Under the pieces are notes generated by a model. That model ran no database searches. It was not told where the DNA came from and saw only the letters and a program-made list of their open reading frames with translations. Positions 13,792-36,840 of a DNA stretch of 51,207 nucleotides are shown one piece after another. Position 1 is the first letter of the stretch; every line of letters starts with the position of its first letter. Source of the stretch: a virus; the IMG/VR virus record IMGVR_UViG_3300026907_000016; one strand, 5' to 3'. Made by a program: the position numbers and the translations under genes.

Positions 13792-14511
13792 ATGGACATT
13801 TACGAAATCCGCAAGGCCAACCTGGTCGAGCTAATTGGCAATCGCCGAAAGAAGGAATGCGCAGACAAGTGGGAGCTGAACCCGGCTCACTTGAGCCAGA
13901 TCCTTTCCCTGAAAACCGAAAAGAACCTCGGCGACGACGTTGCGCGCCGGATCGAAGATAGAGAGGGACTGCCGCGTGGATGGCTAGATGCCTTGCGGCA
14001 TTCGGCTGCAGAAGCCGCCGAAGGCTTTACCCACAACGTGGTGGCATATGATCCTGAAGACGCAATGCCGGACGGGGCTGTTGCGATAAGCGAGTATCAA
14101 GTGAACTTCTCAGCCGGAAATGGACACCAGGCGCTCTACGAGATCATTGAGGAATCGGACCCGGCGATTTACAAGCTGTCGTGGTTCCGCGCTGAGCGGA
14201 TCAAGCCCGAGAAGTGCAAGCGCTTCAGGGTGAAGGGCGACAGTATGGAGACGACGCTATTCGACGGCGATTCAGTGCTGGTCAACATGGAAGAGAACGA
14301 GCCCACCAAGATCATTGACGGCAAGGTCTATGCACTGCGATACGGGAACGATCTACGCATCAAGCGGCTGTTCAAGAAGCTGGACGGAAGCCTTCGCCTG
14401 GTCAGCGATAACCAGGCCTACCCGATTGAAGACATCGCCGCAGATGTCGCCCAGGAACACATCACCATAATCGGCCGCGTGCGGGACAAGAGCGGGAAAG
14501 GCGGCCTCTGA
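13792..14511 (+). CDS. cI: CI-type repressor (HTH plus S24/LexA-like autopeptidase)
   Basis: 239 aa. C-terminal VKGDSMETTLFDGDSVLV...LRIKRL carries the Ser/Lys dyad blocks. Divergent from cro. Confidence 0.9.
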   Translation: MDIYEIRKANLVELIGNRRKKECADKWELNPAHLSQILSLKTEKNLGDDVARRIEDREGLPRGWLDALRHSAAEAAEGFTHNVVAYDPEDAMPDGAVAISEYQVNFSAGNGHQALYEIIEESDPAIYKLSWFRAERIKPEKCKRFRVKGDSMETTLFDGDSVLVNMEENEPTKIIDGKVYALRYGNDLRIKRLFKKLDGSLRLVSDNQAYPIEDIAADVAQEHITIIGRVRDKSGKGGL

Positions 14512-16253: not shown

Positions 16254-16308
16254 TTAGCTAGAAATTTAGCTCAGAGCTATTGACGAGACTTTAGCGCATG
16301 GCTAAATT
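16254..16308 (+). promoter_or_regulatory. OL-like operator cluster plus candidate PL
   Basis: TTAGCgcatgGCTAA (16291-16305, perfect), TTAGCtcagaGCTAt (16266-16280), and weak TTAGCtagaaATTTA (16254-16268). TTGACG (16280-16285) -17 nt- TAAATT (16303-16308). Confidence 0.5.
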
Positions 16309-16347
16309 TACTCACAAGCCAGCCACAACTGGCGCGGCGAAAGCCAC

Positions 16348-16361
16348 CGCTCTTTACACAA
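16348..16361 (+). promoter_or_regulatory. boxA-like element (CGCTCTTTACACAA)
   Basis: One mismatch to the rrn-type boxA core GCTCTTTAACAA. About 35-45 nt downstream of the predicted PL start. Preceded by hairpin GGC-GAAA-GCC (16336-16345). Confidence 0.3.
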
Positions 16362-16516
16362 TTCGGGAACCTCGCGGCGTGATCCGGGAAACCGTACAGC
16401 GCGAGCAAGAAATTCACGCCACGTGCTGCAGCGAACTGCAGCCATCGGGGCCCATGCGTCCGGTGCGAAACAGGCAAGCACCTGCCAACCGCCAGTAGCG
16501 GTCAGCAGGCATCGGC

Positions 16517-16675
16517 ATGAGGGCCGAGCGCACAAAGCCTGTGGAGATAGACGATTTCCTCGATGCCATTCGCAAGAGTGGCATCACCAATGCGGCTTAC
16601 CAAGGTCGCATCGGTGATCAACGCCGTAGGGCATCACTCAAGAGGAAAGGACATGCGCCGCATTGGAGAGGCTAG
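16517..16675 (+). CDS. Candidate 52-aa Arg-rich ORF (below the track cutoff). Any N-like role is speculative.
   Basis: MRAERTKPVEIDDFLDAIRKSGITNAAYQGRIGDQRRRASLKRKGHAPHWRG*. First ORF after PL, with a weak SD. Confidence 0.25.
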   Translation: MRAERTKPVEIDDFLDAIRKSGITNAAYQGRIGDQRRRASLKRKGHAPHWRG

Positions 16676-16829
16676 CCAGCGCGCCATAATCGCAAGCATC
16701 GCCGAGGTCATTGCCGAGTGCCGAGAGAGCGCACGCTGGCCATCGGATCGCGAGAACGGTATCGAATGGTTCCACATTCACCGCGCGAAGCTGCGCACAA
16801 AGATTTCCGCAGCGCCACGACTTCCATAA
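16653..16829 (+). CDS. Hypothetical protein (58 aa)
   Basis: Internal start MRRIGEASQRAI of ORF 16563..16829, after a strong SD AAGAGGAAAGGAC. Confidence 0.45.
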   Translation: MRRIGEASQRAIIASIAEVIAECRESARWPSDRENGIEWFHIHRAKLRTKISAAPRLP

Positions 16830-16851
16830 CCCGCCGCCCTGCCTAGCCGGA

Positions 16852-17099
16852 CAGATGGCATCGGTGATGGATGAATGCGGAGTGATGATCCGCAAGTGCC
16901 TAGTGGACTGAGAGCGGCCAAGTCGAGGCATCGACCATGGCAAAGAAGGTTCCGGCCTTCCATCAATAACCGGGAAACAGGCGATCCGCAGGCAAACGAC
17001 GTGAGCGCAACCTTGCCGGGCTCATGCGGCGAACGGACACACAGCACGCGGCAGCAAGCCAGGTTCATCTCTGGCCATCCATCAACCGATGTCATCTGA
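16852..17099 (+). ncRNA. Candidate structured RNA or DNA element closed by a 22-bp long-range inverted repeat
   Basis: cagatggcatcggtgatggatg (16852-16873) pairs with catccatcaaccgatgtcatctg (17077-17099), with one G-U and one bulge. There is no credible ORF on either strand. Internal hairpins GCGGAgtgatgaTCCGC and GGCAA..TTGCC. Confidence 0.35.
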
Positions 17100-17254
17100 A
17101 GAGGGTATTGGGGTAGCTCTGGCGCGTGACTGGTTCGCACGCCTGGCTAAAAAGAAACTCGGTGCCGGTGCGACGGTGCCGGGCAACTGGAGGGTTCAAG
17201 CCCCTCTCGCCGGAGTTACCACCGATGCCCTCTCCCTCGGCATCACCCTAGCTT

Positions 17255-17275
17255 GCCCCTCCCCGGGGCCTTTTT
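17255..17275 (+). terminator. Terminator-like hairpin abutting the tRNA
   Basis: GCCCCtccccGGGGCCTTTTT. The tRNA acceptor stem starts at the next base. Confidence 0.5.
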
Positions 17276-17351
17276 GCCGGCATAGCTCAGTAGGTAGAGC
17301 GGCGCACCTGTAATGCGCGTGTCGCGGGTTCGAGACCTGCTGCCGGCTCCA
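17276..17351 (+). tRNA. tRNA-Thr (anticodon UGU), with an unusual C at position 33
   Basis: Hand-folded cloverleaf: GCCGGCA/TGCCGGC acceptor, GCTC-AGTAGGTA-GAGC D arm, GCGCA-CCTGTAA-TGCGC anticodon arm, GCGGG-TTCGAGA-CCTGC T arm, and T-CCA. Confidence 0.75.
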
Positions 17352-20546: not shown

Positions 20547-21278
20547 ATGTCTGAGCAAAACATGCAGATCTGGTCTCAGGTCGATAAGACCGACCCTCAA
20601 TACACCAAAGCAGCAAAGGTCGGCGGCCAAAACATCACCAGCCTGAACGGTACGGCAATGGTCATGAAGGCTACCGAGGTATTCGGGCCTGCTGGAATCG
20701 GCTTTGGCTGGAACATCATTGAGGAGCGCTTCGACAAGGGCGCCGAGATGTTTTCCGGCGAAGGCGAAAAACGCATCTCGCTTGGGTTCGAACTGAACCA
20801 CACCGTCAAGATCATGTTCTGGTTCAAGGTCAACGGCGAGCGAGGGGAGATTGAGCAGTACGGGTGCACACCGTATCTCTACAAGTCGAAGTACGGCACC
20901 ACAACTGACGGCGAGGCGCCAAAGAAATCGCTGACCGACGCCATCAAGAAAGCCCTTTCGATGCTCGGCTTCAGCGCTGACGTATTTATGGGCATGTTCG
21001 ATGATCGCGATTACGTCGAACAGCGGCAAGAAGAAGAGGCGCAAGAGCGGGCGCTGGAGAAAGCTGCCGAGGAAGAGCGCCTGAAGAACGAGCGCTTGGA
21101 ATACCTCAAAGGCGTCATCACTGAGATGCAGCAGGCCGAAACATTCCAGGCTCTGAAGAAAGCCCATGACCTGGCCGTGCGGCGCCTAACTGCCCAGCAA
21201 GACCACAACGGTGTCAAGCGCATCGCCAAGGAACTTGCCGAGCAAACGCCTCGATTCAAGCAGGAGGACGCAGCATGA
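20547..21278 (+). CDS. Rad52/Sak-like single-strand annealing protein
   Basis: 243 aa. KKSLTDAIKKALSMLGFSADVFMGMFDD is typical of Rad52-family phage annealases. Acidic coiled C-terminus. Confidence 0.6.
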   Translation: MSEQNMQIWSQVDKTDPQYTKAAKVGGQNITSLNGTAMVMKATEVFGPAGIGFGWNIIEERFDKGAEMFSGEGEKRISLGFELNHTVKIMFWFKVNGERGEIEQYGCTPYLYKSKYGTTTDGEAPKKSLTDAIKKALSMLGFSADVFMGMFDDRDYVEQRQEEEAQERALEKAAEEERLKNERLEYLKGVITEMQQAETFQALKKAHDLAVRRLTAQQDHNGVKRIAKELAEQTPRFKQEDAA

Positions 21279-21838
21279 CTCAGCTCTATGTGCTGACAGG
21301 TCAGATGGCGGAACTTGCCGCCATGGCCGACACCGACGATGAAGGCCTGAAGCAAGCCATCCAAGACACCATGGATGCGATCCAGGGCGAGTTTGAGGTC
21401 AAGGCAGACAGCATCGTGATGTTGCGCCGTAACATTGAGGGCGACATCGAAGCAATTGATACCGAGATCGCCAGGCTTGCCGAACTGAAGCGCATCAAAA
21501 AGAACAGTATTGGCCAGATCAGCGATTACCTGCGCCGCAACATGGAGGCAGCTGGCATTAAGTCGATCAAACGCCCCCTGTTCACCATCACCCTGGCTGC
21601 TGGCGTCGAAAAAGTCATCGTCGACAAAGAGTCGGATGTCCCTGACGACTTGGTTACTGTCAGCACCAGCATTGCCCCGGACAAGAAGGCAATAGCCGCC
21701 AAGCTCAAGGAAATCCGCACCCATAACGAGTCCGTGCGGAAACGCATAGACGCTGGTGAAGACGCAGAGCACGAACTCTTGCCAGAGCCCGCCTGGGCTC
21801 ACCTTGAGCGCGGCGAAGCATCCATTCGCATCAAGTAG
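21275..21838 (+). CDS. Siphovirus Gp157-like protein
   Basis: 187 aa. An N-terminal coiled coil followed by KRPLFTITLAAG...; ATGA overlap with the annealase gene. Confidence 0.55.
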   Translation: MTQLYVLTGQMAELAAMADTDDEGLKQAIQDTMDAIQGEFEVKADSIVMLRRNIEGDIEAIDTEIARLAELKRIKKNSIGQISDYLRRNMEAAGIKSIKRPLFTITLAAGVEKVIVDKESDVPDDLVTVSTSIAPDKKAIAAKLKEIRTHNESVRKRIDAGEDAEHELLPEPAWAHLERGEASIRIK

Positions 21839-22658: not shown

Positions 22659-22731
22659 TCGAGTACTGCCGCACGACCTGGGCGCCCGTCCCGTGCGGGT
22701 GCCTGAGGTGCACACCAATAGCGAGGTGAGA

Positions 22732-23541
22732 ATGAATGAGCTGGCTCTTTTCGCGGGCGCTGGTGGAGGAATACTCGGCGGCCACCTCTTGGGGTGGCGC
22801 ACCGTCTGCGCCGTTGAGCGTGATGCCTACGCAGCACAAGTTCTGGCGCAACGACAAAACGATGGAGCCCTCCCAGCTTTCCCGATTTGGTCTGACGTGT
22901 GCAGTTTTGACGGACGACCATGGCGAGGCCTTGTTGACGTGGTTTCGGGCGGATTCCCGTGTCAGGACATATCCGCTGCCGGGGCTGGTGCCGGGATTGA
23001 TGGCGAGCGGTCTGGCCTCTGGCGTCAGATGGCTCGAATCATCGGTGAGGTACGACCCAGCCACGTCTTCGTGGAAAACTCACCGCTGCTTGTGGGACGA
23101 GGACTTGCCGTGGTCATCGGTGACCTTGCCGAAATGGGGTATGGCGCTCAATGGGCTTGTCTATCGGCATCCGACACTGGAGCGCCCCATCAGCGCGACA
23201 GAATCTGGCTTGTGGCCAACGCCAACGGTTCACGGCAATCACAACATGCCCGGCAGCAGCAAGACGGCGGGATGGGGTCTGAGCAGCGCGGTCAAGATGT
23301 GGCCGACGCCGACAGCGATGAACTCAAGCGGCGGCGCGGCGCTATCCAAGTGGGGAGGATCTGGCGCGCGCAAGAAGCTGAAGACCATGGTTACGCCGGC
23401 CGAGCTGCATGGCCCACTGAACCCGGCATGGGTCGAATGGCTGATGGGGTGGCCAATCGGTTGGACAGACTTAAAGCCCTTGGAAATGGCCAAGTTCCGC
23501 GAGTGGCAGCAACAGCATTCTCCCTTCTCGATCGAGGCTGA
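22732..23541 (+). CDS. dcm: DNA (cytosine-5) methyltransferase (frame A)
   Basis: MNELALFAGAGGG (motif I), GGFPCQDIS (IV), FVENSP (VI), QRDRIWLV (VIII) and LKALGNGQVP (X), in canonical order. SD GAGGTGA. Confidence 0.85.
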   Translation: MNELALFAGAGGGILGGHLLGWRTVCAVERDAYAAQVLAQRQNDGALPAFPIWSDVCSFDGRPWRGLVDVVSGGFPCQDISAAGAGAGIDGERSGLWRQMARIIGEVRPSHVFVENSPLLVGRGLAVVIGDLAEMGYGAQWACLSASDTGAPHQRDRIWLVANANGSRQSQHARQQQDGGMGSEQRGQDVADADSDELKRRRGAIQVGRIWRAQEAEDHGYAGRAAWPTEPGMGRMADGVANRLDRLKALGNGQVPRVAATAFSLLDRG

Positions 23542-25443: not shown

Positions 25444-26265
25444 GTGAATCGAATGAATGAGCAAGTGAAGCCCACGCCTCGGGCGTATCAGGCGAATGTG
25501 TTTTGGGATCAGCAAGACTGCGCAACGCTCAGCGCCCAGGTGTACCTGGCCAGCGATGCTGATTCGTACATCGACGCTCTGCACGCAGAGGCCGAGGCGC
25601 TGCGGGCTGAGAATTGGCGGCTGAATGCCGAGTTATCGGGCGCGCTGACTGGCATCGCAACAGAGTCTCAGGCGGCCGACCACTATCGGACTCAGCTTGA
25701 GGCGGCGCGGGGATTGCTGCGTGAGGTGGAATTGCTGGCCGAAGTCAGGGAGCACGGATACGCCGAGCGAAAACATGGCGACGTGCTCAACTACCGCTGC
25801 GCCAATGCTGTGGTGGAGATGCTGCCGCGTATCCAGGCCTTCCTCACTGCCACCCCGGCGCCGGAAGTGCGGCATGAACAGGCCACCCCGAAAGCCAGTA
25901 ACGGCGCTGGATGCAGCCATTTACAGGCAGAAGAACAGGCCGAGCAGGGAGAGCGGCAGGAGGCGGTGGCGTTCCGCTGCAAGCTCTCCATCCACAAAGA
26001 CTGGAAGTACATCGACCACCGTGCGCCGGACAGCTTTGAGCTGCGAGAGTGCGAGATTCAGGAGCTCTACACCACACCGCAGCCAGGCCCGGACTTGCGG
26101 GCGCTGGTGGAGGCGCTGGAGCATGCGCGCCTGTTCATCCGCAACGGCGTAGAGCTGGGCTACGTGAAGATGCCTGATGCCGATACGCCAGACCCCGCGC
26201 ACGAAACGCTGCCGAAAATCGAAGCAGCCCTGGCCGCACATCGACAGGCGCAACGCCAGGCCTGA
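25444..26265 (+). CDS. Hypothetical coiled-coil protein (273 aa; alternative ATG at 25453)
   Basis: ORF-track entry. The N-terminal third is helical (AEAEALRAENWRLNAELS). Confidence 0.55.
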   Translation: MNRMNEQVKPTPRAYQANVFWDQQDCATLSAQVYLASDADSYIDALHAEAEALRAENWRLNAELSGALTGIATESQAADHYRTQLEAARGLLREVELLAEVREHGYAERKHGDVLNYRCANAVVEMLPRIQAFLTATPAPEVRHEQATPKASNGAGCSHLQAEEQAEQGERQEAVAFRCKLSIHKDWKYIDHRAPDSFELRECEIQELYTTPQPGPDLRALVEALEHARLFIRNGVELGYVKMPDADTPDPAHETLPKIEAALAAHRQAQRQA

Positions 26266-26323
26266 TCCACCCCATCCCATCCCCTTTTCTATCTGCCCAC
26301 AACGTAGGGCGGGAGGATTTGCT

Positions 26324-27079
26324 GTGTCCGAGATAAAAGAATTTGGAGCTCGTATGAAAGATTCGATTCTGCGGCTGCTTGGCATCTGGAGCTTTGAGCC
26401 GGCCCAAAAGGGCTGGAAGGGCTACTGGTCTGCACGCGCCAGTTGGGGAGAGGTTGCTGGTCGCCCCGGGCTCGCATTCGGCTTTGTACTGAATGATCGC
26501 AGGTTCCTGCTCAACTTCTGCTTGGGCTGGCCTGTTTTCTACATCCGCCTGCGCTTCCTTGAGCGCTGGACGGGCGAGGCTCGGGATTGCATGGGCGACC
26601 GCTGGGGATTTTCTCTCGTAGACGGCCGTTCGATTCACCTCAATTGGCGCGACAAGACCAAGATCATCGACTTGCCATGGTCGTGGGATGTCGTCAGGAA
26701 AAGTGAGCTGCTTGCTGATGAGACCTGGGCTCACGACTTCTACGGAAAGGGTAAGCGCCTGACTTGGGAAGAGCGGAAGGCGCTCACTCTCTGGAAGCGG
26801 GAGCTGCCATACACCTATGTGCTGCGCTGCGGCGAGGTTCAGGAGCGCCTGGCGACAATCCGCGTTGAGGAGTGGGAATGCCGGCAGCTTTGGCTGAGGT
26901 GGTGCCCGTTGTTTGCTCGTGTGCGGCGCTCTATCTGGGTTGAGTTCAGCGGCGAGGTCGGCGAGGGCACCGGCTCTTGGAAGGGCGGCACGATGGGGTG
27001 CGGTTACGACATGAAGAAAGGCGAGTCGCCGGAAGACTGCCTTCGTCGCATGGAACGCGAACGGAAATTCAACCGGTAG
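26324..27079 (+). CDS. Conserved Trp-rich phage hypothetical protein (251 aa)
   Basis: GTG start after SD GGGAGGA, within ORF 26177..27079. Contains ...EVGEGTGSWKGGTMGCGYDMKKGESPEDCLRRMERERKF. Confidence 0.55.
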   Translation: MSEIKEFGARMKDSILRLLGIWSFEPAQKGWKGYWSARASWGEVAGRPGLAFGFVLNDRRFLLNFCLGWPVFYIRLRFLERWTGEARDCMGDRWGFSLVDGRSIHLNWRDKTKIIDLPWSWDVVRKSELLADETWAHDFYGKGKRLTWEERKALTLWKRELPYTYVLRCGEVQERLATIRVEEWECRQLWLRWCPLFARVRRSIWVEFSGEVGEGTGSWKGGTMGCGYDMKKGESPEDCLRRMERERKFNR

Positions 27080-28290: not shown

Positions 28291-28509
28291 ATGCCAATGG
28301 AGCACATTGATTTCCTCAGCCACGAGCAGGTGTGCGAGCTTACCGGCGCCAAGATAAAAGCTAGGCAAATCGCCATACTCAAGGCAAACGGCATCCCCCA
28401 CACCATCAAGGCAAGCGGCTGGCCGTGCGTGATCGCGGCCAACCTGATGCCGCACATGAAGCAGAAGATCGAAGCGCCTTCTGAATGGAGGCCTAGGAAG
28501 GCATCGTAA
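28291..28509 (+). CDS. DUF4224-like protein, typically found upstream of integrases
   Basis: 72 aa. LSHEQVCELTGAKIKARQIAILKANGIPHTIKASGWPCV. Confidence 0.55.
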   Translation: MPMEHIDFLSHEQVCELTGAKIKARQIAILKANGIPHTIKASGWPCVIAANLMPHMKQKIEAPSEWRPRKAS

Positions 28510-29537
28510 TGGGACGCAGACCAACCAAGCCAGGATCAGTGCCGCGCCTGCGCGAGCGGAAGCGCGGCAAAACCTCCTACTACTTCTACGACCTTGGCGG
28601 CAGGCCGAGAAAGGAAATCTCGCTCGGGAAGGACTACGGTTTAGCGATCATGAGGTACGCCGAACTGGAGCGGGATAGATCGGCTAGCGACCTGGCGCGG
28701 CAAGTGATCACTTTTGACTACGTGGCCAACCAGTACCTGACTCAGATAGTTCCGACCAAGGCCCCTGGCACTCAGACCAAGAACCGTCAGGAATTGGCCA
28801 GGCTGAAAGAGTTCTTCAACGACCCGCCCGGGCCGCTGGAGGCTATTCAGCCGATCCACGTTCGTCAGTACCTGCGCTGGCGGAAGGACGCACCTGTAAG
28901 TGCCAATCGGGAGAAGGCACTCCTAAGCGCGATCTGGAACTTCGCCCGGGAAAGCGGCTATACCGCGCTGGCCAACCCGTGCTCCGGCGTTAAGGGAAAC
29001 CGGGAGGATGGGCGCGACGTGTACATCGAGGACTCCATGTACGACGCCGTTTACGCGGTAGCAGATATCGGCCTGCAGGATGCAATGGATCTTGCGTACC
29101 TAACAGGACAGCGCCCGGGCGACACGCTGCGCATGGATGAGCGGGATATCAAGGATGGGAACCTGCATGTTAAGCAGGCCAAAACAGGCATGAAGCGAAG
29201 GATTGAAATTGGCGGCTCGCTGGAGGCGCTGATTGAACGCATCAAGGCACGTAAGGCCGGTCACAAGGTGCGCTCAACGCGGCTGATCGTGACAGAGGAA
29301 GGCAAGGCCATGACGGCCAGCATGTTGCGGGGAAGATTCGATAAGGCCAGGGAGGCAGCCAAGATCCCTAAAGCAGACTTCCAGTTCAGAGACCTGCGCG
29401 CCAAGGCAGGCACGGACAAGGCGGAATCGAGCGGGGATATCCTGAAGGCACGGGATCAGCTCGGGCACACAACAGTGGTCATGACCGAGCAGTACATCCG
29501 TGATCGCAAGGGGAAGAAAATCACCCCTACCCGATGA
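28509..29537 (+). CDS. int: Tyrosine integrase
   Basis: 342 aa. LAYLTGQRPGD (Arg I), FRDLRAKAGT, LGHTTVVMTEQYI (HxxR-like box and catalytic Tyr region). Adjacent to attP. Confidence 0.9.
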   Translation: MGRRPTKPGSVPRLRERKRGKTSYYFYDLGGRPRKEISLGKDYGLAIMRYAELERDRSASDLARQVITFDYVANQYLTQIVPTKAPGTQTKNRQELARLKEFFNDPPGPLEAIQPIHVRQYLRWRKDAPVSANREKALLSAIWNFARESGYTALANPCSGVKGNREDGRDVYIEDSMYDAVYAVADIGLQDAMDLAYLTGQRPGDTLRMDERDIKDGNLHVKQAKTGMKRRIEIGGSLEALIERIKARKAGHKVRSTRLIVTEEGKAMTASMLRGRFDKAREAAKIPKADFQFRDLRAKAGTDKAESSGDILKARDQLGHTTVVMTEQYIRDRKGKKITPTR

Positions 29538-29538
29538 A

Positions 29539-29775
29539 TTGCGGAAAACTTCTGCTTTTGCGGAAATCCGCTGCGGCCTACGTTTTTCTGTAAGCCGCGC
29601 AGTTACTGGTGCCCGAAGCCGGACTCGAACCGGCACGCCATTGCTGGCGAGAGATTTTAAGTCTCACGCGAAAGCAATGTATATCAAGGCATTCAGACGA
29701 ATATCGTTCCGCAAAAGTATCAGTTTTCCTGCTATGAAGCCCAGCAACTACGAGGGGCTGCTCAGAATTGCGGAA
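29539..29775. other. attP region with four TTGCGGAA arm-type repeats flanking the tRNA-derived core
   Basis: TTGCGGAA at 29539, 29558 and 29768, and inverted (TTCCGCAA) at 29707. Confidence 0.55.
29607..29665 (-). other. 3' 59 nt of a tRNA-Leu (anticodon UAA): the probable attP core and integration target
   Basis: Reverse complement reads GAGACTTAAAATCTC-TCGCCAGCAATGGCGT-GCCGGTTCGAGTCCGGC-TTCGGGC-A-CCA (anticodon arm, long variable arm, T arm, acceptor). No 5' half is present. Confidence 0.7.
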
Positions 29776-35537: not shown

Positions 35538-35947
35538 TGGAAACCCTCAAAGCGATAAACATGCGCTACGCGCGCTCGCCAAACGTCCGCAAGGCGGTGC
35601 TCGACAACCTTCCCGACGTGTTCGTATGCGTGGATCATCGAATAGCCCGCATGGATGGCGATGTGTTGCGGAGCGCCGTCGAAGCGCATCAACAGCACGT
35701 CGCCCTCGCGCATTTCGGTCGTCGGCACACGATGCAAAAATGGTTGACGCTCAATGCATTGTTCCAGCAGTCCCTTGTAGGGATTGCGGCCATACCCCTG
35801 CTCGTCTATCACGCACAGGCCAAGGTCGCGGCACACCATGACGAACAGGCCGGCGCAGTCCAGCGCAAGCGGCGGCGTACGACCCTGGTGACGGAACGGC
35901 ACGCCGAGGTATGTGCGCGCTGCTGCAACTACGTCTGCGCCCTTCAT
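35534..35947 (-). CDS. NlpC/P60 cell-wall peptidase (RcGTA g14-like)
   Basis: 137 aa. LDCAGLFVMV (catalytic Cys) ...QHIAIHAG...IHAYE (His). Confidence 0.8.
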   Translation of the reverse strand: MKGADVVAAARTYLGVPFRHQGRTPPLALDCAGLFVMVCRDLGLCVIDEQGYGRNPYKGLLEQCIERQPFLHRVPTTEMREGDVLLMRFDGAPQHIAIHAGYSMIHAYEHVGKVVEHRLADVWRARVAHVYRFEGFQ

Positions 35948-36840
35948 CCGCCTCTCCCTACTGAGCTGTATTGCGAAGGCGAAGGCACGTACTCAAACCC
36001 GCCAAAATTGCGCTTGTTGCTGTACTTGACCCTGCACTGGGTGCCCGTCTTATTGCAGCCTGGGATCATCTCGTAGGCGTCGCCGATCTCGGGCAGGTAG
36101 AACATCGCGTCCTGCAGCAGCATAACGCCGCCAGCCGCGAAGGCCTTGACGCGGATCGGCGCCAGGCCGGCGTTGTTGCCGCTGGTGAATCGGATCTCGC
36201 CGAAGTCGAACCAGCCAGCCGCCTCTGCACGAGAGGAATCCGCGAATATGTACTGGTCGGTTACGCTGGTGATCGTGCCGGTTACGAGGTAGTCGGCAAT
36301 GTCAGGGCCGTCCGGCGCCGCACGCGGCCCAGTGCAGCGGCTTTTGTGAGCCGGCAGCAGGTCGCCGCCGAGGCGCTGATCGAACAGCGTCCACTGGCAG
36401 GAGGCGGTGTAGGTACGGCCGACCGACTGCGACAGCACGTCTATGGCGCCCATCAGCTGCACGCTGTAGGAGTCGCGCAGTTCGTCGAACTGCGCGGCAC
36501 CGAAGAACATCAGCCCCAGAGGTTCTTCGTCCTCAATTGGATTGGCCCAAGACGTGGCAAACAGGTAGACGCGTGCGTTGTCGTAGACGCCCGAGGCCAG
36601 GTCGGTTCGGCTTATCGCGCCCTGCTGAAGGATTCCGCTCAGGTCGATGCTGGAACTGGCAAACGTGCTGGTGCTGTCCAGGCCTGAGAATTCATACCCG
36701 CTCTCGGTCAGGTAGACATGGCCATTGCTCATCGGCAGATCAACCGGGTACCCGGCCAGGCGCACGATAGGCGCGTCATTTGCCGGCTCAATGCGGACGC
36801 AGTAAACCCGCGTCTGCCAGTCTGCGACGTGTGATTTCAT
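35944..36840 (-). CDS. DUF2163/BR0599-type tail protein (RcGTA g13-like)
   Basis: 298 aa. C-terminal CNKTGTQCRVKYSNKRNFGGFEYVP. Confidence 0.65.
   Translation of the reverse strand: MKSHVADWQTRVYCVRIEPANDAPIVRLAGYPVDLPMSNGHVYLTESGYEFSGLDSTSTFASSSIDLSGILQQGAISRTDLASGVYDNARVYLFATSWANPIEDEEPLGLMFFGAAQFDELRDSYSVQLMGAIDVLSQSVGRTYTASCQWTLFDQRLGGDLLPAHKSRCTGPRAAPDGPDIADYLVTGTITSVTDQYIFADSSRAEAAGWFDFGEIRFTSGNNAGLAPIRVKAFAAGGVMLLQDAMFYLPEIGDAYEMIPGCNKTGTQCRVKYSNKRNFGGFEYVPSPSQYSSVGRGG

Follow-up and report, generated by a model that had tools for sequence, protein, structure and literature searches.

In phages P1 and P7 the C4 RNA, and in P4 the CI RNA, are processed by RNase P from the leader of a phage early operon through a tRNA-like precursor, and their variable loops give them specificity. 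Long double-stranded stems are found in the RNase III hairpin of the lambda N leader, in sib and at the early sites of T7, where RNase III sets the fate of the mRNA or frees a small RNA. The stable RNAs C and D of T4 ('species 1 and 2') lie beside the T4 tRNA cluster, have tRNA-like ends and are co-processed. Here we examined a stretch of about 450 nt (16830-17275) between a small gene and a tRNA gene in the IMG/VR virus record IMGVR_UViG_3300026907_000016, the whole of which (51,207 nucleotides) is referred to as the window. Positions 16852-17233 probably specify two tandem tRNA-shaped RNA modules, M1 and M2, which belong to an apparently undescribed family and are read from the + strand of an early-left operon resembling that of lambda PL. 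A structured phage non-coding RNA (ncRNA) had been suggested at this place by a first-pass annotation made from the letters of the sequence, and this is favoured as the most likely reading by the folding of the + strand, by covariation and by the occurrence of a tRNA-like element next to the terminator and the tRNA.

Comparison with described RNAs

The predicted modules resemble C4 (RF01695) and CI as small structured RNAs of tRNA-like shape in an early operon beside the immunity region, but they are unmatched by the C4 model, their closing helix is much longer and no complementary target was found for them. With the lambda and T7 elements and with DicF, which is encoded in the dicB operon of Qin (10.1101/2023.04.14.536235), they share long stems in early transcripts, located past a nut-like hairpin and ahead of the first genes. 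Those elements, however, are simple hairpins, in which a conserved multi-helix interior, tRNA-like arms and pairing between loops are all missing, and cleavage of the modules is only presumed. Like RNAs C and D of T4, the modules are phage RNAs encoded next to tRNA genes, whereas the T4 RNAs are not known to have a closing helix of 22-25 bp or a hypervariable centre and belong to the tRNA cluster of a virulent phage, not to an early-left operon. GOLLD and ROOL are likewise ornate prophage ncRNAs with variable regions, often beside tRNA genes, but the modules have no Rfam match to them, are much smaller (120-250 nt), differ in architecture and occur in another host clade.

YrlA (Rfam RF02553) is a modular ncRNA in which a long helix joins the 5' and 3' ends and a further domain mimics the acceptor, D and T arms of tRNA; it is a substrate of tRNA enzymes and is also present in phages (PMC4201824). 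The combination of a long end helix with a tRNA-mimic domain recurs in the modules. The T-arm precedes the D-arm in YrlA, however, whereas the modules follow the order of tRNA, and most module members have Watson-Crick kissing loops instead of the D/T elbow. The YrlA model had no match at E<=10 in the window between 16500 and 17500, and its sole match, in the related locus L008 (20.7 bits, E = 0.077), is a sub-threshold chimera of the M2 T-arm with the D-arm of the neighbouring real tRNA. YrlA is typically encoded beside a Ro60/Rsr gene, and the 5' strand of its basal stem carries the conserved motif GNCGAAN0-1G (PMC4201824). No TROVE/Ro60 domain was detected among the 30 open reading frames (ORFs) of the window that were scanned, the structural-gene half being left out, and the motif does not occur in the 5' strands of the module stems; the only such string, GGCGAACG at about 17029-17036, falls in the variable centre of M1.

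More generally, no model of Rfam 15 matches the family, that of tmRNA included, and only the tRNA gene passes the gathering threshold in the window. At 14 related loci searched at the same threshold no match overlaps a module, and sensitive scans added none; apart from tRNA genes, the Rfam searches returned Proteo-phage-1 RNA at other places in relatives and chance matches. Full-text searches of the literature with the arm sequences and related concepts returned no description of the element. The class that suits it best is that of tRNA-like or processed ncRNAs encoded by phages.

Two long helices close adjacent modules

Long-range helices were searched on both strands of the window by a run-length-based scan that allowed G.U pairs and at most one interruption. 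The two longest in the 51-kb window, with 25 pairs in M2 and 22 pairs in M1, lie side by side on the + strand at 16852-17233, and the next best has 21; no long-range helix of more than 19 pairs was found on the - strand. In 40 dinucleotide shuffles, helices of at least 22 pairs occurred at a rate of 0.175 per strand and none reached 25. The closing helix of M1, designated P1, pairs 16852-16873 with 17076-17098 through 22 bp (21 Watson-Crick and one G.U) and has a bulged A at 17084/85; this is the 22-bp stem of the first-pass annotation, which had recognised the G.U pair and the bulge and had placed the 3' arm one base off. The helix closing M2, which had been missed, pairs 17100-17123 with 17209-17233 through 24 bp, or 25 with G17124-C17208, including 4 wobble pairs and the bulged A17221. 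In place of the single RNA of about 250-420 nt that had been envisaged there are two tandem modules, each with its own closing helix of 22-25 bp. A second module, with an unrelated 20-bp helix, was also detected in the related locus L006. The length characteristic of RNase III substrates (about two turns, or at least 20 bp of nearly continuous double-stranded RNA) is reached by helices of 22, 24-25, 22 and 20 bp with at most one or two bulges.

The whole region folds much more stably than its shuffles on the + strand (z = -4.7) and not on the - strand (z = -0.3). The 202-nt interior of M1, taken alone, folds like shuffled sequence (z = -0.3), and interiors of the relatives range from z = -2.1 to +1.6. 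The local hairpins that had been pointed out in the roughly 200 nt between the M1 arms are therefore present, but not above chance, and the folding signal of the region stems from the long-range helices. Six of the 89 pairs in the window-type stems are not Watson-Crick, and all six are G.U in the + sense. As the mismatches are G.U only in this sense, the T-loop motifs can be read only that way and the operon runs in the same direction, the RNA sense is taken to be +.

The absence of a credible ORF, already remarked in the first pass, stands. ORFs overlapping 16830-17275 do exist, two of 74 aa on the + strand (16875-17099, and 17089-17313 running into the tRNA) and one of 120 aa on the - strand (16778-17140), but the ORFs tested had no Pfam or PHROG match and no tblastn match in 50,697 phage records. 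Comparison of the window with L001, its closest relative, shows six amino-acid changes in the 74-aa frame and then a frameshift, and in other relatives the whole interior is exchanged and the short ORFs there vary in length. A protein-coding reading of the stretch was rejected on these grounds, that is, the missing family and tblastn matches together with the non-synonymous changes and the frameshift against L001.

Architecture of M1 and M2

All features described here lie on the + strand. In M1, the 5' strand of P1 (16852-16873) is followed by a junction AAU (16874-16876), which is constant inside the relatives, and by hairpin P2 (16877-16893, GCGGA-GUGAUGA-UCCGC), whose stem occurs in the compensatory forms GCGCA/UGCGC, GCUCA/UGAGC and GCGGA/UCCGC. 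A hypervariable central domain of 164 nt (16894-17057) shows wholesale exchange between relatives and has no conserved ORF. The last hairpin, Plast (17058-17075, GCCAGG-UUCAUC-UCUGGC), touches the 3' strand of P1 (17076-17098, carrying the bulged A); its stem is GCCGG/CCGGC in relatives, and the window has a compensatory change of G-C to A-U. The P2 loop GAUGA (16884-16888) pairs with the Plast loop UCAUC (17065-17069), its kissing partner, and this pairing covaries. The M1 centre also contains a 10-codon ORF, MAKKVPAFHQ (16938-16970), preceded by GAGG at a distance of 8 nt. In L001 the stop codon TAA of this ORF reads AAA, and the frame grows to 81 aa across the 3' arm and the terminator. The ORF has no homologues and, judging from its sequence, is probably not a gene.

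M2 begins directly after M1 with the 5' strand of its closing helix (17100-17123). The minimum-energy fold then gives a D-arm-like hairpin (17124-17142, GCGUG..CACGC, with UGGUU in the loop), which parallels the D-arm of the L008 M2 in position and in its GG loop, and a central region of an A-rich linker and a GC-rich hairpin (17143-17188), which is not alignable with the L008 M2. This region includes CCGGTG at 17165-17170, which had been proposed to form an acceptor-like helix with CGCCGG; such pairing is possible, but the minimum-energy fold places CGCCGG in the M2 closing stem. A T-arm-like hairpin (17189-17207) touches the 3' strand of the closing helix (17209-17233, with the bulged A17221). 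Its core, GAGGG-UUCAAGC-CCCUC at 17190-17206, is the T-arm look-alike of the first-pass annotation and is borne out, as it fits the T-loop consensus; the window has one other such hairpin, with 0.11 expected per window.

A family of modules in Pseudomonas phages

To find relatives of M1, we searched IMG/VR, the GTDB genomes and JGI metagenomes with exact arms and with anchors. Arms identical to those of M1 were recovered at eight distinct loci, where they enclose six unrelated types of sequence of 73-203 nt; the AAU junction, the first hairpin P2 and the last hairpin Plast touching the 3' arm are constant among them. Each of these loci lies either in a prophage or phage from the Pseudomonas mendocina/oleovorans group (Ectopseudomonas composti LY1, Pseudomonas sp. 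P818) or on a metagenomic contig. For M2, a 17-mer of the 5' arm retrieved from IMG/VR only L008 and two chance matches.

When the same helix scan was applied to every fetched locus (1.58 Mb for the two strands together), recurrent helices of 20-25 bp came to light in P. aeruginosa-type phages. In the sense of the operon, these consist of the 5' arm GGCUGUAUCGGAGAGUGGUCUG (or one of two further arm types), AAUGCGCAGGCUGAUGCGC as P2, a variable centre, GCCGGAGAUCAGCACCGGC as Plast and, last, the 3' arm complementary to the first. The same P2 and Plast occur under different arms in L030 and in about 15 P. aeruginosa-type loci. P2 and Plast are common to L019 with window-type arms, L030 with a third arm type and the phage PAJU2 with P. 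aeruginosa arms, and L019 and PAJU2 have a homologous centre as well. The sharing of P2 and Plast under different arms points to one RNA design with different closing helices.

A BLAST search of INPHARED detected the element in the deposited genomes of at least 46 Pseudomonas phages, in at least 27 distinct variants, and it is almost always unannotated; the carriers include PAJU2, phi1, phi2, YMC11/02/R656, JBD88b, DO4, PAE2, LESphi3 and MD8 among others. In the plasmid collection it was found in five phage-sized records only, and exact-arm scans of the genome, metagenome and viral collections returned nothing beyond the same prophage context and chance matches. As a background control, about 70 phage regions that have the linker hairpin of the operon but no arms contained no helix of 20 bp or more and no tRNA. 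At all loci examined the module lies 5'-proximal in the operon, in the same context and orientation. PAJU2 has the order PL promoter, conserved hairpin, module and first ribosome-binding site, with no predicted terminator past the module; in LESphi3 the module follows the first small gene, and in the window it follows one cassette gene. The first ORF past the module of PAJU2 (L105, 3681-3743) encodes a 20-aa hydrophobic peptide, MPDLGEFAALFVVLFLTMYW. A Proteo-phage-1 RNA (RF03044) was noted 2.7-3.9 kb downstream of the module in L004 (6263-6340) and L009 (1901-1978, - strand) and is absent from the window. As the stretch opens onto a widespread unannotated family, the finding is broader than the first-pass annotation had it.

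Covariation of the helices and the loop-loop contact

Helix P1 was aligned over 13 distinct arm pairs of four arm types, with the register imposed by hand and the bulged A removed. Standard pairs occupy 94.5% of the cells, both sides have changed in 14 of the 24 pairs, and covariation scores 0.424, compared with 0.133 +/- 0.02 for shuffled alignments (0/500) and at most 0.06 with the partner slid. The arms, for which comparison with related prophage regions had been recommended, therefore both occur in relatives and covary. The canonical interior was aligned in nine distinct rows. There P2, Plast and the loop-loop pairing jointly have 98.5% of cells paired and five doubly changed pairs (0/500 shuffles), and the loop-loop helix is GCUGA:UCAGC in most P. 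aeruginosa phages, GUCGA:UCGAC in L076 and GAUGA:UCAUC in the window. For M2, the closing helices of the window and L008 have the outer half in common, the inner half differs on both strands and still pairs, and two G.U pairs of the window are A-U in L008.

Covariation in P1 could come from terminal inverted repeats, as repeats bound by one protein would also covary, whereas covariation of the internal hairpins and of the pseudoknot cannot, which argues for an RNA structure. The arms might still be read at the level of DNA, as terminal repeats of a miniature inverted-repeat transposable element (MITE) or an invertible element, or as linkers for the recombination of cassettes. Identical arms around very different interiors would suit recombination at conserved flanks, and the 3' arms resemble the cassette linker CATCACCAATGCG just as the 5' arm resembles the 3' strand of an upstream leader hairpin, H2. 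Nevertheless we consider this very improbable. MITEs and comparable elements are known by many unrelated sites, target duplication and a conserved interior, and none of these features was found here: the operon context and orientation are uniform in all loci examined, no target-site duplication was seen at the junctions and the matches are confined to phage and prophage DNA. Moreover, terminal repeats leave the covariation of P2, Plast and above all the loops unexplained, the mismatches of window-type stems are all G.U in one sense, and the linker-hairpin regions without a module, about 70 in number, have no helix of 20 bp or more. The earlier suggestion of a relic of a small inverted-repeat element is given up on the same evidence.

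Resemblance to tRNA

The order of parts in a module is that of the cloverleaf, namely closing helix, junction of 2-3 nt, 5' hairpin, variable domain and a 3' hairpin without spacer to the 3' strand. The 5' hairpin stands at the position of the D-arm, the 3' hairpin at that of the T-arm and the hypervariable domain at that of the anticodon arm. At the position of the elbow between D-loop and T-loop, M1 and the canonical family have 5-7 Watson-Crick kissing pairs, in place of which M2-type members have a GG D-loop and a UUCRANY T-loop. By the functional resemblance on which tRNA-like elements are defined, M2 qualifies through its T-arm touching 17208/9-17233 and its UGGUU hairpin (17124-17142), and M1 has the tRNA-like topology with covarying kissing loops replacing the elbow.

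Two relatives come closer to tRNA in sequence. The M2 of L008 forms a cloverleaf of 19.8 bits, below the Rfam tRNA gathering threshold of 29 bits, with an encoded C-CCA and a perfect T-arm, GCGGG-UUCGAGU-CCCGC, at the position that the T-arm occupies in the M2 of the window. In L043 (525-622; also in L044), P. aeruginosa-type arms surround a match of 44.4 bits to the tRNA model, in which the top of P1 serves as acceptor stem. The acceptor, D and T arms are normal there, and a 37-nt segment replaces the core of the anticodon arm. Either the module scaffold has captured a tRNA gene in this case, or the element is an intermediate form.

The first-pass annotation had also considered a degenerate tRNA array, which comes nearer the mark than might appear, as the modules have cloverleaf topology and one relative reaches 44 bits on the tRNA model. 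Decaying tRNA genes without present function would agree with the T-arm in the window M2, the sub-threshold cloverleaf of L008, the disrupted anticodon arm of L043 and the adjacent slot for a real tRNA, which is itself gained and lost. Decay would, however, neither make or keep helices of 22-25 bp with compensatory changes nor produce a covarying kissing-loop substitute for the tRNA elbow, and canonical members have no sequence similarity to tRNA at all in sensitive Rfam scans. The covariation speaks for maintained structure, and decay is the explanation to which we give the least credence.

Operon context and possible roles

The window represents a temperate phage with a G+C content of about 60%. 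Family searches identified a repressor gene of the S24 cI type at 13792-14511 on the + strand, and the replication genes (O-like, DnaB) are oriented opposite to it. On the same strand past cI there are two terminators, a predicted sigma-70-like promoter (16280-16308), the leader and a cassette gene of 58 aa (16653-16829, +; phrog_28999), which precedes the ORF-free stretch. The stretch is followed by the terminator, the tRNA and a long + strand operon with genes for DUF7666, Gp157, C5 methylase and Acb3 and, last, the integrase. By analogy, this gene order corresponds to the layout of the lambda PL (early-left) operon. Genes in the operon encode a homologue of the inhibitor Acb3 of the cyclic-oligonucleotide-based anti-phage signalling system (CBASS; 26177-27079, E = 1e-44), a C5 cytosine methyltransferase (22693-23541) and a Gp157-family protein (21275-21838). 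With these three in the same operon, the modules and the anti-defence genes share one transcription unit.

Our best guess is that the modules are excised by RNase III or RNase P into stable tRNA mimics. RNase III would cut the long P1 helices, or RNase P the acceptor-like junction; excision as compact RNAs is suggested by the maintenance of P1 at 20-25 bp whatever its sequence, as RNase III would need, and by the stacking of Plast on P1, as in RNase P recognition. Compact, nuclease-resistant tRNA-like RNAs would thereby be released from the operon transcript, and the mRNA of the upstream cassette would be uncoupled from the terminator, the tRNA and the downstream genes. More speculatively, the released RNAs would act as tRNA mimics that engage tRNA-binding factors of host or phage, the variable centre picking the factor.

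Several observations weigh against the modules as conserved tRNA-shaped RNAs that are processed. L003 and L028 have no modules and retain the tail and the terminator, so the modules are dispensable for the operon as such. The covariation alignments come from related sequences and were registered by hand without the bulged A, and M2 is known from two sequences only. Read in the operon sense, the arm types of P. aeruginosa retain an A.C mismatch, joined in one type by a C.C, and the conserved A.C would be G.U on the other strand; we take these mismatches as conserved irregularities of the helix, from whose top they are 8-13 bp away, as is the bulged A in M1 and M2. Several members have no canonical P2, and no kissing partner was found in them (the L088/L034 type, the F2 type and L004/L005). 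Neither M1 nor M2 of the window has a + strand match to the Rfam tRNA model (RF00005) at E<=10 or a call by ARAGORN. Processing and the release of stable RNAs, finally, are what we infer from helix length and topology.

The modules could instead form a purely cis-acting leader, either an RNase III-sensitive tuner of the stability or translation of flanking genes, comparable to the lambda N-leader hairpin or sib, or a processive antitermination or Rho-shielding structure for read-through of the terminator into the tRNA and the genes behind it. We hold this to be possible, if rather doubtful. The modules are always 5'-proximal, past a PL-like promoter and a conserved hairpin; a terminator lies past them in the window and no separate promoter is predicted for the operon genes beyond it. 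Between promoter and terminator there is no conserved N-like gene, the sole ORF there being a swappable cassette. The 450 nt of untranslated RNA would otherwise attract Rho, from which the tight structure could shield it. The leader has a boxA-like sequence, CGCTCTTTA at 16348-16356, but this match on its own is not significant. Besides, the tail and terminator of L003 and L028 come without a module, the module of PAJU2 without a predicted terminator behind it, and a hypervariable centre together with real tRNA-like cores is hard to explain for a polymerase-modifying or structural element.

An antisense RNA of the C4/CI kind, with variable loops pairing to phage-specific immunity or regulatory targets, appears improbable. 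A basal stem with hairpins in an early operon beside the immunity region, a conserved scaffold with hypervariable interiors and tRNA-like features suited to RNase P processing would all be in keeping with it. The Rfam C4 model is unmatched, however, no complement of 13 nt or more to 16830-17275 was found elsewhere in the window, and in a crude test the duplex energies of the interiors with their own flanks (+/-400 nt) were no better than with non-cognate flanks.

As for the function of the excised tRNA mimics that we favour, they may be L-shaped decoys or inhibitors of host defences that target tRNA (anticodon nucleases, for instance PrrC, RloC, PARIS or retron effectors) or of other tRNA-binding factors, the domain at the position of the anticodon arm being swapped rapidly between phages. 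This specific role is unlikely as it stands, though the tRNA-mimic reading fits the shape of the modules and their neighbourhood of anti-defence genes. If true, the early operon would open with an RNA-based anti-defence cassette and also carry genes for anti-defence proteins, Acb3 among them, and the modules would be candidates for RNA-based interference with tRNA-directed host functions.

If the tRNA-shaped modules are read correctly, many well-studied temperate phages of P. aeruginosa and their relatives carry an unannotated RNA of conserved structure among the first early-left transcripts. The family would offer a natural series in which the tRNA elbow is swapped for a programmable Watson-Crick kissing pair, the acceptor stem is lengthened to two helical turns and the anticodon domain is freely exchanged. 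It would point to RNA 'morons' next to protein morons in hyperplastic regions, give a concrete candidate for the punctuation of phage operons by RNase III or RNase P, and provide a ready seed alignment for a new Rfam family.

Flanking elements and minor observations

Between the cassette gene and M1, positions 16830-16851 (+) hold a degenerate form of the intergenic linker hairpin (a stop codon and CCGCCCTGCC-loop-GCAGGGCA), which in related phages is found behind cassette genes; two substitutions break it in the window, and it is intact as CCCTGCCTAGCAGGG in L001, L004, L006 and L008. Behind M2, a tail (17234-17254, +) is homologous by sequence comparison to the pre-terminator ACCGCAGCACCCTCCCTTGCC of relatives. 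The hairpin GATGCC..GGCATC seen in the first pass is indeed present (17224-29 with 17239-44) and competes with the M2 stem. The intrinsic terminator (17255-17275, +; GCCCC-UCCCC-GGGGC + CUUUUU) has its stem at 17255-17269 and its T-run up to 17275. Its stem occurs at the same place as GCCCC/GGGGC, GCCGC/GCGGC, GCCGG/CCGGC and GCCCG/CGGGC, and such compensatory changes indicate a real RNA hairpin. An antiterminator pairing of the tail with the terminator, suggested by L001, was dropped as it is not conserved in L004.

The tRNA gene (17276-17351, +; 61 bits to the Rfam tRNA model) begins with the first base after the T-run, so the terminator adjoins it as first described. It is most likely Thr(UGU): the Infernal register gives the loop CCUGUAA with an unusual C33, whereas ARAGORN, shifted by one base and accepting an A.C mismatch in the stem, calls Tyr(GUA), and by BLAST the gene is similar to phage tRNA-Thr genes. 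The altered anticodon loop of this tRNA may be relevant to the evasion of anticodon nucleases. The slot is variable: it contains Thr in the window, tRNA-Met in both L008 and L019, and only a remnant, GCCGGTTAGCCGGCTCC, in other relatives. At 36348-36363, within the minus-strand ORF 35944-36840, there is an exact inverted match of 16 nt to the 3' portion of the gene, GACCTGCTGCCGGCTC (17334-17349); about 0.03 such matches are expected by chance.

The leader (16280-16620) comprises the promoter-like site, the boxA-like sequence and two overlapping hairpins, H1 (GATGCCA..TGGCATC, 16562-16585) and H2 (16583-16594 with 16607-16618). H1 is kept with compensatory changes in L028, L031 and PAJU2 and precedes cassettes or modules every time; from its sequence, H1 may serve as a nut-like site. 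The core of the M1 5' arm is identical to GCATCGGTGAT, the 3' strand of H2, which makes alternative long-range pairings possible.

The cassettes themselves form a hyperplastic region, in which small genes are exchanged exactly at conserved linkers in the window (16553-16850) and in loci L003-L008 and L102. The linker ahead of the gene is AACGCCGTAGGGCAATAGGAGATAGAGATG, and that after it is the stop codon followed by a CCGCCCTGCC-loop-GCAGGGCATCACC hairpin, present in 77 IMG/VR contigs. The 58-aa cassette protein of the window, used as a search query, matched only itself. A 1-nt indel near 16595 divides the counterpart of the 108-aa L001 ORF into two frames in the window (16517-16675 vs 16563-16829), and a strong ribosome-binding site ahead of the ATG at 16653 points to the 58-aa version as the real gene.

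L003 (PP438408.1) and OP828577.1 were deposited as phages of the cyanobacteria Leptolyngbya/Plectonema. Much of this Pseudomonas-phage backbone (leader, tail and terminator, together with several genes) recurs in them at about 89-94% identity, and judging from these sequences their stated host may deserve a second look.

Past the integrase gene (28509-29537) lies a probable attP zone bounded by 23-nt inverted repeats at 29543-29565 and 29707-29729. Between the repeats there is a T-arm-like sequence on the minus strand, GCCGG-TTCGAGT-CCGGC at about 29618-29634, and 29543-29729 is probably an attP core derived from a host tRNA gene.

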